Positions 12,001-15,000 of a stretch of DNA of 19,423 nt are shown here, one piece after another. The DNA comes from Campylobacterota bacterium (lineage in GTDB: Bacteria; Campylobacterota; Campylobacteria; Campylobacterales; Sulfurovaceae). Position 1 is the stretch's first letter. The number at the start of each line of letters is the position of its first letter. The stretch lies in assembly GCA_034722955.1 (NCBI GenBank), contig JAYEOM010000035.1, forward strand, positions 1 through 19,423, given 5' to 3'. The position numbers were made by a program.

Positions 12001-15000
12001 GAGAAGAGCTTTTATAATCCCAAATATCGAAATATAAAATCCGTACTACATAAGTGAGAAGATATGGTAAAAGTAGAATTTTTAGGTCCTCTAGGAAGAG
12101 AGCCTTTGGAGATAGAAGCGACAACACTCAAAGAGGTCTCTGATCTGCTAAAGAGTGATGAAACACTTGCCAACTGGCTGCCCAAATGTGCAGTAGCCCT
12201 GAATGATACGATGGTAGGAGATCTGCAAACATCTCTAAAACCTGGGGACAGGATCACAATCCTCCCTCCTGTATGCGGCGGGTAGGTTATGGAGCTTTAT
12301 GAGGGATCACTGGATGTCAAAGCTATCTTTGGCAAATGGCTGGATGAAGAGGCATCTTCAAATTATGGTGCCTATATTCCATTTGTAGGTACTATACGAG
12401 CCGAAGATGGCATAGAGGCGTTGAGTTTTGATATATATGAACCTATACTGCAAAAGTGGTTTGATACTTGGCAAGAGAGAGCAGCCAGAGAGGGTGCAGT
12501 AGTCAAAATGGCACATGCTGTAGGTGATGTACCGATACATAGCTCATCGTATATATCGGCTATTTTTTCACCTAGACGAAGAGTTGCACTGGAGCTAATA
12601 GATATATTTGTCGAAGATTTCAAAGCAAATGCTCCCATCTGGAAATATGATGTGATTGATGGTGAGCGTATCTATGCTGATGACCGCAGTACCCCGATGA
12701 GTGGTGCCGGTCTATTGGCATAATTCGTGCTTAAGAAAGGATAATAAAATATGGCATTTATGCACTTTGATAAATCTATTGAGCTGCTTGAGAATATAGA
12801 GATCAAACACTATAAGAGAAAAAAACTCTATCTATGTTCGGCACTAGGTTATATACTAGCAGAGGATATTGTGGCAGATCACAACTCACCAGAGTATCCG
12901 ACTTCTGCGATGGATGGATATGCATTTCGTTATGAGGATATAGGGTTGGGTCGTTTACAAGTCTCCAGCATCAATCCAGCGGGATCTCAACTGAGTGACA
13001 GCGTGAGTGAGGGGAGTTGCATCAAGACCTTTACCGGCTCCTTGATGCCCGAGGGGAGCGATACTCTGATCCCTATAGAGAATGTAACTGTAGAGGGAGA
13101 TGAGATCATCATCAACAAAGAGGTTCCTCAGGGCTTCTCTGTGCGAGCTATAGGTGAAAATTACAGCAAAGGACAACTCTTGATCTCTAGTGGGACTAGG
13201 ATTGATATTGCTCAGATTGGTGTGATGGCGAGTCTAAATATCGTGACTCCTCTGGTTTTTGATAAGCCTATGGTCTCTATCCTCTCTACGGGAAGTGAAC
13301 TTTTGGAGTTGGGTGAGACACAAAGCCATGATGCTCAAATCAGAAGTTCCAACAACTATATACTTGAAGCAATTGTCCAAAAGTATGATGGTCAGCCGAT
13401 ACAGCTAGGTTGTGTCAAAGATGACAAAGAGAGTATCACCTCAGCTATCTCCAATGCCTTGATACAGAGTGATATAGTTGTGACAACAGGCGGTGTGAGT
13501 GTTGGTGATTTTGATTTTGTCAAAGATGTGATCCGTGAACTTGGATGTGATGTAGTCTTTAAGGGTGTTCGTGTTAAGCCAGGACAGCATATCATGGTAG
13601 CCCGCAGAGAGGATAAGTTTATCATTGCTCTACCAGGGTTTGCATACTCTGCTACTGTAACGGCACTGCTTTATGTTCTGCCATTGATCTCAAAGCTGCA
13701 ACAAGGAGAGTGCAGAATACGCAGTGTTAATGCAACCCTAAAGGAGCCTTTTATAAAACGAGCAAAAAAGGCCGAGTTTACTGCATGCAATCTCTCTGTA
13801 GTTGATGGTGAGTATTTCGTTGATTTTGAAGGCAAAAAAGTTGGCTCTAGTGCCATCCTGACCAATATGCTAGGAGAGATAGCACTACTCGCTACCAAAG
13901 AAGATGAGTCAAGTAGTGATATAGGAGGAAATGTGAAGGTTTTACTATTGGATTAATTCTCCATAGATCAATACTCTCTACTGCCTTAGCTTGAGGTAGA
14001 GTGCCAACTCTGCCATAGTTTTGCATCCTGACTCTATAGCCTCTCTGATCACCTCTCTTTGTCTCTTGAAATCCATCTCTGATCCTTATTTTGATGATTT
14101 ATATGTTAAATTGTATAACTAAATCCTAGAAATACATTTATTTATTTCAAATTGCCATATTTTAAGATATATTTGTTACAATATATAATAGATTACAAAG
14201 GAGATAGATATGGTTGAGTTTGGTGAAATAATTGAGAAGTTAAAAGATGTGATCTCTAGCAAAAAGATAAGCGGTAAAGTTTTCGATAAAGATGTTGCAA
14301 TGGAGCTAGGTATCCCTCAAACCTCTTTTGCTACAATGAAAAAGAGAAACTCCATTCCCTATGCAGAGCTGATAGAGTTCTGTGCGACTAAGAAGCTGAG
14401 TATTAATTGGCTCTTTTTTGATCAGCCTGTAGAGATGCTGATCGAAGAGACAAATAAGTTTTTTCAAGTTCGATATTTTACAGATCTGCGTGCTAGTGCA
14501 GGTGGTGGTGCAGAGGTATTTGATGAAAATTATGAACTTATCAGTATTGATGAGAAGATCATTCACAATATGGTAGGAGATATTAATGGCAAGCTAGAGG
14601 CGATTCATGTCGAAGGTGAGTCGATGGAGCCTACCCTCTATAATGGCTCTATTGTATTTATAGATAGAGAGCAGACCAATATCTCAAAAGATGGTATATT
14701 CATCGCCTCTACCAATGCCGGTCTCTTTATCAAGCGTATCCGTCAAAGAGCAGATGGCATGATAGAGTTGATCTCAGATAACAAAACCTACTCTCCAGAG
14801 CTACTCGCACCCGATGAAGTCAGGATCGTAGGGCGGGTAGTAGGAAATATTGAGAGCTTATAAGATAGGTTTATCTACACGCAAGAGAGCATTTTGGAGT
14901 CTAGTAAGTCTGAGTTTTGCTTCATCCAAGATGGTATGATTGACATGTTGTTCGCCCATAGCCTCAAGGCGTGTGAGTCTACCCAATGAACAGTCTGGCG

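Follow-up and report, generated by a model that had tools for sequence, protein, structure and literature searches.

The window analysed here is the whole 19,423-nucleotide stretch of contig JAYEOM010000035.1 (assembly GCA_034722955.1) from a Campylobacterota bacterium of the family Sulfurovaceae. It carries a gene for an S24-family regulator, a very short gene that reads away from it, and a palindromic box between the two. The features are as follows.

13978-14076, minus strand: unannotated ORF of 32 amino acids, divergent from the regulator gene, with a promoter that carries the same box and with homologs in family loci
14083-14087, minus strand: Shine-Dalgarno sequence AAGGA of the small divergent gene, from the sequence
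14103-14117, no strand: weak second box-like site matching 12 of 15 positions, 41 bp from the main box and overlapping the divergent -10
14110-14115, minus strand: predicted -10 element TACAAT of the divergent promoter, exactly 28 nt from the box
14144-14158, no strand: main palindromic box ATTTCAAATTGCCAT, 51 nt before the regulator ATG, from the sequence and a matrix scan
14174-14182, plus strand: predicted extended -10 element TGtTACAAT of the regulator, 18 nt after the box, from the sequence
14198-14203, plus strand: Shine-Dalgarno sequence AAGGAG of the regulator, from the sequence
14210-14863, plus strand: S24-family regulator gene, 217 amino acids, from Pfam, conserved residues and AlphaFold/Foldseek

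A terminator-like hairpin (13995-14014, plus strand) is located 3' of moeA and inside the peptide ORF. On the other side, an 81-amino-acid ORF without a Pfam match (14858-15103, minus strand) converges on the regulator gene, and its homologs are found near the regulator in 45 of 80 Sulfurovaceae loci.

The regulator joins a phage-186/CI-type helix-turn-helix (HTH) domain at about residues 1-72 (PF07022, E 6.8e-6) to an S24 peptidase domain (PF00717, E 3.4e-20). Between them lies a conserved linker helix (74-81), followed by a predicted cleavage site at A97-G98 and the catalytic residues S138 and K175. The Ala-Gly site and the Ser-Lys dyad are invariant in 109 of 109 orthologs. With the LexA model (TIGR00498) the protein scores 28 bits against a cut-off of 111. 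The initial annotation had described an S24 regulator with a phage-CI-type HTH that falls below the LexA threshold, and these results agree with it on both points. Foldseek searches with the AlphaFold model (pLDDT 85.8) returned the lambda-186 hybrid repressor 7JVT and 186 CI (2FJR) as the best matches, then LexA and lambda CI (3BDN). The regulator resembles canonical LexA in its S24 domain, its cleavage site, its probable autoregulation and its recA and dinB targets, but differs in the low model score, in an N-terminal domain of the 186-CI fold rather than a winged helix, and in that uvrA, recN and ruvA carry no box in this genome.

The structural matches, the divergent promoters and the paired operators are shared with phage 186 CI and lambda CI, the latter of which both represses and activates. 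Unlike those repressors, the regulator has no prophage context. Its neighbours are moeA, pglB and other housekeeping genes, moeA adjoins it in 69 of 80 loci, and its GC content of 40% is like that of the whole genome; the earlier description of a chromosomal gene therefore holds. The closest sequences are Campylobacter and Helicobacter prophage repressors (33-36%), and in a tree the orthologs group largely by family, apart from the phage repressors. A prophage CI repressor was rejected on the basis of the missing prophage context, the neighbours, the GC content and the presence of the gene in nearly all genomes outside two families (see below). With a CI-type HTH and an S24 domain, a chromosomal position outside any prophage, and a palindrome of its own before itself and before dinB, recA and repair genes, the regulator shows the characteristics of non-canonical LexA proteins as a functional class. 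The HTH of the Bacteroidetes SOS regulators, PF01381, was not matched, PF07022 taking its place; our tree was built without Bacteroidetes sequences.

Orthologs (E <1e-40) were sought in 150 genomes of the phylum, each at least 90% complete. They are present in 34 of the 37 genomes outside the phylum's two largest families, here called f2 and f3, and in 0 of the 113 inside them (best match 2.9e-32). The 80 closest named loci are titled mostly Sulfurovum or Sulfurovaceae. The weak f2 and f3 matches cluster with a Campylobacter phage and a Helicobacter prophage repressor (tree support 100/97), apart from the orthologs, and for this reason we infer that f2 and f3 are Helicobacteraceae and Campylobacteraceae. 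Canonical LexA gave no match at E 1e-15 in any of 151 phylum genomes, and the control search was positive in 7 of 14. The initial annotation spoke of a phylum described as lacking LexA; the absence holds in this sample, but the available text of PMC2912397 states it only for H. pylori and C. jejuni. Divergent S24 copies adjoin dinB in a few cases (in G075, in G137 and on a small contig of G070). Divergent copies with other recognition helices lie beside dinB-like genes at L409, L362, L094 and L407, with two copies on the 40-kb second contig of G070, and these loci are possibly mobile regulator-dinB cassettes.

Matrices trained on other genomes give the main box the highest score in 2413 upstream regions. 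Relative to the predicted promoters, it covers about -45 to -31 of the regulator promoter and -55 to -41 of the divergent one. In de novo searches for palindromic motifs, 15 loci of five other families yielded TATTtCAAaTTGaAATA, 78 Sulfurovaceae loci yielded ATGtCAAaTTGaCAT, and the 11 loci examined in f4 and f8 yielded the variant ATTAACAAaTTGTTAAT. The palindrome first reported upstream of the regulator is therefore recovered independently from orthologs of other families, and 66 of the 79 Sulfurovaceae orthologs whose start was called have its exact pattern upstream. In this genome the pattern has 6 matches and the reversed control 0, which fits the earlier figure of 6-18 per relative against 0-1. 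However, the reversed control is too lenient because 36 genomes without an ortholog hold 0-5 exact sites each, 58 in total. It was replaced by non-carrier genomes, column-shuffled matrices and a spacing control. Thirty column-shuffled matrices give means of 3 and 6 upstream hits where the real matrices give 10 and 20.

In f4 and f8 the variant box co-occurs with recognition-helix changes at positions 37, 38, 41 and 42. Genome-wide, five f4/f8 genomes hold 0-1 exact variant sites each, the loose pattern shows no excess over its control, and no variant box lies before recA in 7 of 7 genomes. The earlier caveat that the variant is not enriched in these two deep families is thus correct as far as it goes, but it missed both the co-variation with the recognition helix and a 28-nt spacing to dinB that is kept there. 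The form of the box in family f6 matches TTAC-AAATT-GTAA, the sequence bound by one Elizabethkingia regulator in the available text of PMC8565304.

A recA box of at least 11 bits is present in 16 of 30 carriers of the regulator and in 0 of 30 non-carriers across the order, so the recA box does follow the gene, as had been proposed. By family, it is found in f6 (6/6), f7 (6/6), f10 (1/1) and f11 (3/4), and is absent from f1 (0/3), f4 (0/4), f8 (0/3) and f5, f9 and f12 (0/1 each). A second sample gave a recA box in 20 of 29 scorable family genomes, one having been dropped for want of upstream DNA. Within one genus, G157 has the regulator and a recA box, and G166 and G174 have neither. Among ten family genomes chosen for few or no boxed promoters, the regulator was unmatched by this query in five, weak in one and divergent in one; six of those seven regulator-poor genomes, being in the recA sample, score at most 6.5 bits before recA. 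Carriers that lack the recA box are G004, G121, G054, G075, G091, G130, G177 and all seven f4/f8 genomes tested, and G176 has a weak site only.

These data bear on a simple alternative, namely that another factor reads the box, or that the box is a promoter element of general use, with the S24 gene as just one target. Two genomes, G159 and G168, keep weak box-like sites 28 nt before recA where the regulator was not found with this query, as such a reading would allow. We nevertheless consider it highly improbable, given that the box and the recognition helix change together, that none of the 30 non-carriers has a recA box and that the site before the regulator itself is the best in the genome. 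Comparison across genomes in this way shows the box to belong, in all likelihood, to the regulator protein.

We ranked the 2413 upstream regions of our own gene calls with two matrices. The other-family matrix places the regulator itself at rank 1, recQ at 3, recG at 9, YraN at 13, radA at 17, an HTH-only paralog at 27 and recA at 33. The family matrix places the HTH-only paralog at 6, recA at 15, dprA at 19, YraN at 21, an ATP-dependent ligase at 22 and recG at 37. The initial annotation had these repair and competence genes in the top 18; all do rank high, but with ranks of 3-37 the claim is reproduced only approximately. When a -10 element is required 28 nt from the box, recQ, recG, radA, recA and dprA rank 2, 7, 9, 10 and 11 of 2338, and dinB ranks 27. 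The recJ gene (rank 7-8) was not counted as a target, as its site spans the called start and has no -10 at 28 nt. No box precedes uvrA, recN, ruvA, radC, comEA or rmuC in this genome. The low scores reported for uvrA, recN and ruvA are thus borne out, but dinB should not be listed with them, since dinB, and probably comM, carry a weak box exactly 40 nt before a leaderless ATG.

Targets in relatives were surveyed in 60 regions around exact sites from seven genomes (all sites of G057, G131 and G121, and 6 of 11 for G049, with most self and recA sites omitted elsewhere). Downstream lie dinB four times, comM twice, radA, YraN, rmuC, four DNA methylases, a radical-SAM/UDG repair gene and an integron integrase, as well as many unrelated genes. 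The first boxed promoter in each of 30 family genomes precedes recA (3), the divergent peptide (3), recG (2), dprA (2), comM (2), dinB (1), comEA (1) or, in the rest, other genes. Genomes hold up to about 20 boxed promoters. In order-wide loci, dinB sits beside the regulator in 12 of 29, which agrees with the adjacency described earlier, and in Sulfurovaceae loci it does so in 0 of 80. By comparison, then, the box is shown to mark recA, dinB, radA, recG, recQ, comM, dprA and other DNA-handling genes as putative targets. A phage-CI-derived S24 regulator with its own box and an SOS-like, recombination-related regulon is well supported as a prediction from genome comparison.

Genus g3 is a special case. 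Its boxed promoters (G121, L241-L247; L310-L317) lead mostly to outer-membrane beta-barrels, lipoproteins, bactofilin and HU, and G121 has no box before the regulator. The regulon may have been rewired there.

Several boxed genes deserve separate mention. The integron integrase at L215 (G057:C14; TIGR02249 above cut-off) has a box 28 nt before its -10 and would, on our reading, be under the control of the regulator. Recurring downstream of boxed promoters are DNA methylases, restriction genes, REP-associated transposases, BrnT toxins and antitoxin-type HTH genes (L212, L220, L227, L231, L319; G000:C56:261-1148). The second-best box in this genome precedes a 111-amino-acid protein of no known family (G000:C20:13218-13550, minus strand; L111), whose leaderless start lies 40 nt after the box; homologs occur in 8 of 101 order genomes, and 2 of the 7 others have a box at 28 nt. 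The HTH-only paralog (77 amino acids; G000:C58:24848-25081, plus strand; L128) has a box with a -10 at 29 nt and a different recognition helix. Separate boxed HTH-only genes were seen only in this genome, G151 and G155, and the paralog is a possible second-tier regulator.

The box also takes a fixed position relative to the promoters of its targets. Every -10 element in this analysis is a predicted hexamer, and a plain test for TAnnnT was used because a -10 matrix gave too much weight to the extended G and put 5 of 17 recA promoters in the wrong place. Across 61 family genomes the exact box is followed by TANNNT at 28 nt 338 times and at 38 nt, one helical turn further, 38 times, counts that include related genomes and are not independent. 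Twenty carriers show TAnnnT at 28 nt in 94 of their 278 site orientations, against 4 of 116 for 36 non-carriers, and the best -10 lies at 27-29 nt for 27 of 46 intergenic exact sites versus 2 of 14 sites within genes. All 36 boxed recA promoters have TAnnnT at 28 (35) or 29 nt (1). In this genome recQ, dinB, comM and the gene for the 111-amino-acid protein have leaderless ATGs 40 nt after the box, which places the box at -55 to -41. YraN, the ATP-dependent ligase and Cdd1 have no clean -10 at 28 nt here. The Cdd1-family gene (PF11731; G000:C42:43103-43393, minus strand; L124) has its box just 21 nt before the start, a repressor-type position unlike that of the other targets.

The arrangement at the regulator's own promoter is different. 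Most Sulfurovaceae have a spacing of 19-20 nt there, and elsewhere the values are -1, -24 or -34, so that the box covers the -35, the -10 or the start, and TAnnnT at 28 nt occurs in 4 of 105 orientations toward the regulator versus 178 of 353 others. A G at -14, the mark of an extended -10, is present in 24% of 178 target promoters versus 51% of 73 self promoters. Dispersed targets have a second site in only 8 of 120 cases downstream and 7 of 120 upstream. We rejected the idea that the right half of the box is a shifted -35 element: the distance from TTGACA to the -10 would be 29 nt, and at 17 nt there is no consensus for a -35. In many Sulfurovaceae recA promoters (L136, L331-L350) TAnnnT recurs at 38-39 nt, preceded in this genome by an extended TG; the boxed promoter may thus be paired in tandem with a constitutive one.

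The sites of LexA vary in position over the core promoter. The initial annotation had added, as a caveat, that fixed spacing could mean activation, and this proved the strongest signal in the data, with 28 nt at nearly all targets, a single site and a free core promoter. Its broader picture of a LexA-like SOS regulator stands in respect of the box and the SOS-like regulon, but the repression that it implied is doubtful in view of the fixed 28-nt spacing with a single site. The geometry points to an activator-type arrangement at the targets and a repressor-type arrangement at the regulator's own promoter, as predicted from the positions of the sites.

Classical logic might still account for such sites. 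The intact dimer would repress from -55 to -41 and RecA-driven cleavage would derepress, and the position would be fixed because the box doubles as an AT-rich upstream element or alpha-subunit contact, or because repression acts through contact with polymerase. The cleavage residues are intact, the targets are of the damage type, and the AT-rich box usually has ATTTT after it (97 of 178). C. jejuni promoters have gnTAnaAT 4-8 nt before the start, no -35 element and a periodic upstream signal, and leaderless messages are common among repair genes (PMC3847290, available text). The S24 regulators of Bacteroidetes and Francisella, moreover, are described as repressors with damage-induced targets in the available texts of PMC8565304 and PMC13148647, a description that also counts against activation, although the former notes activation as a possibility. 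However, a steric repressor needs no one-base precision across many families, and the positions over the -35, -10 or start that the box takes at the self promoter are almost unused at the targets. We therefore regard classical repression as unlikely.

The divergent 32-amino-acid gene shares the activator-type geometry. Of 106 ortholog loci, 75 have TAnnnT 28 nt from the box in the divergent direction (second-best spacing, 16), and a second site of at least 6 bits at +41 is found in 35% of 77 divergent peptide promoters, this site being weak in this genome. Homologs of the ORF occupy the same place in 76 of 83 family loci. Their changes by codon position (967/549/3061) and the ratio of synonymous to non-synonymous changes (2233/767) indicate purifying selection. 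A profile search found the peptide in 46 of 61 family genomes and in 119 clusters, nearly all of short proteins; it has no Pfam or NCBIfam match. The best ESM Atlas scores, 0.83 for this peptide and 0.78 for the 111-amino-acid C20 protein, are leads only. Families f6, f7, f9, f10 and f11 have a peptide of 21-34 amino acids of different sequence in the divergent slot, and ten divergent peptides that we measured are amphipathic without a membrane-spanning stretch. The peptide appears to be a new small-protein family tied to the regulator switch.

In f4 and f8 the divergent slot is instead occupied by dinB, in 11 of 11 loci. A second variant box lies 31 or 42 bp away and overlaps the dinB -10, and for this reason the 28-nt spacing there is not an independent measure. 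The regulator with a divergent dinB is an ancestral-looking unit, from which several families would have recruited a wider regulon while keeping a short peptide in dinB's slot. Division inhibitors are often encoded opposite lexA, and by analogy the peptide may be a division inhibitor. It may alternatively be a cofactor of the regulator, by analogy with the small gp7 protein of phage GIL01, which binds LexA and alters how LexA behaves (PMC6182141, available text).

A domesticated phage-CI-type S24 regulator would then run the DNA-damage and recombination regulon of free-living Campylobacterota in place of LexA. We propose that the protein dimerises on the box and that, at its own promoter, it represses because it covers the -35, the -10 or the start. 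At the targets it would sit at the fixed -55 to -41 position beside weak promoters without a -35 element, contact RNA polymerase and activate, one invariant upstream position at such promoters being the mark of a polymerase-contacting factor. Because this geometry is combined with targets, above all dinB, that are expected to rise on damage, cleavage may yield the activating form. In the most speculative step, RecA on single-stranded DNA would trigger cleavage at A97-G98. Cleavage would lift autorepression, which would involve two sites and probably depend on the C-terminal domain. The N-terminal fragment, including the conserved linker helix, would most likely be the activating form, possibly with help from the divergent peptide, and intact dimers would bind at these sites but not activate. 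Since cleavage removes the dimerisation domain, DNA binding normally becomes weaker, and an activating fragment would for that reason be unusual, which counts against this reading. The carriers without a recA box, the three genes without a clean -10 at 28 nt and the non-repair targets of genus g3 also count against it. On its side are the targets dinB, radA, rmuC, the radical-SAM/UDG repair gene and the integron integrase, and the precedent of GIL01 gp6, an activator homologous only to the LexA N-terminal domain that acts from a palindrome centred at -43.5 (PMC6182141, available text). The HTH-only paralog was rejected as the activating form because its recognition helix is different and its occurrence patchy.

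The same geometry could serve an intact activator whose cleavage shuts the regulon off. The genes would then form a recombination and competence programme with some other on-signal, and RecA filaments would provide negative feedback. This is the simplest fit to CI-type activation, and it suits competence-type targets such as dprA, comM, comEA, YraN and the ATP-dependent ligase. However, radC and comEA lack a box in this genome, dinB is the most constant partner, and switching off dinB, rmuC, the repair radical-SAM gene or the integrase on damage would be hard to make sense of. We judge an intact activator to be improbable. On balance we favour an SOS-like regulon that is activated on damage, through either the cleaved form or a cofactor route. 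The fuller version of this preferred reading is advanced tentatively, as a possible inverted SOS wiring. In it, a RecA-cleavable CI-type protein would repress itself and, from a fixed -48 site, activate genes for repair, mutagenesis and recombination, the activator would arise on cleavage, and a conserved divergent peptide of 30-40 amino acids would be cofactor or effector, in most free-living Campylobacterota and not in the host-associated families.

Among known systems, the regulator appears to work like the non-canonical LexA of Bacteroidetes and FddR of Francisella, and is neither a canonical LexA nor a prophage repressor. The Bacteroidetes proteins, in the available text of PMC8565304, likewise have a CI-type N-terminal HTH with an S24 domain, the Ala-Gly and Ser-Lys residues, a chromosomal location and a palindrome of their own, and regulate dinB, recA, recG, recQ, radC and radical-SAM/UDG genes. 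They differ in that their HTH is PF01381, in that the proteins were reported as exclusive to Bacteroidetes, and in that no fixed box position is reported in the text examined. FddR is a co-opted, autoregulated phage repressor divergent from dinB or from a gene of unknown function, and the proposal made for it, that a divergent unit grew step by step into an SOS network (PMC13148647, available text), is mirrored by f4 and f8 versus the other families. Its motif (GTG-N11-CAC) and its two-gene network without recA are unlike the fixed geometry and the roughly 20 boxed promoters at most found here. GIL01 gp6 and gp7 are phage proteins separate from the cleavable repressor (PMC6182141, available text), whereas here one cleavable chromosomal protein would do both.

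We found no paper on the regulator, the box or an SOS regulon in free-living Campylobacterota in the literature searched, with most subscription papers and the supplements of PMC8565304 and PMC13148647, in whose S24 trees proteins of this kind may figure, lying outside its scope. The main texts of both papers do not mention Campylobacterota, and the words 'epsilon', 'campylobacter' and 'arcobacter' are absent from the text of PMC8565304. New relative to the initial annotation are the fixed 28-nt geometry at the targets, the divergent 32-amino-acid gene under the same box, and the presence of dinB in that slot in two deep families.

Campylobacter and Helicobacter are the textbook bacteria without an SOS response. 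Our findings indicate that in the free-living relatives of these bacteria a captured phage repressor governs a dedicated damage regulon, which the host-associated families lack. The regulator, the box, the targets and the exact promoter positions can now be tested in cultured species. If the geometry does mean activation, a cleavable S24 protein would turn a repair regulon on, a possibility that was raised but not shown in the available text of PMC8565304, and this may invert the usual wiring of the SOS response.
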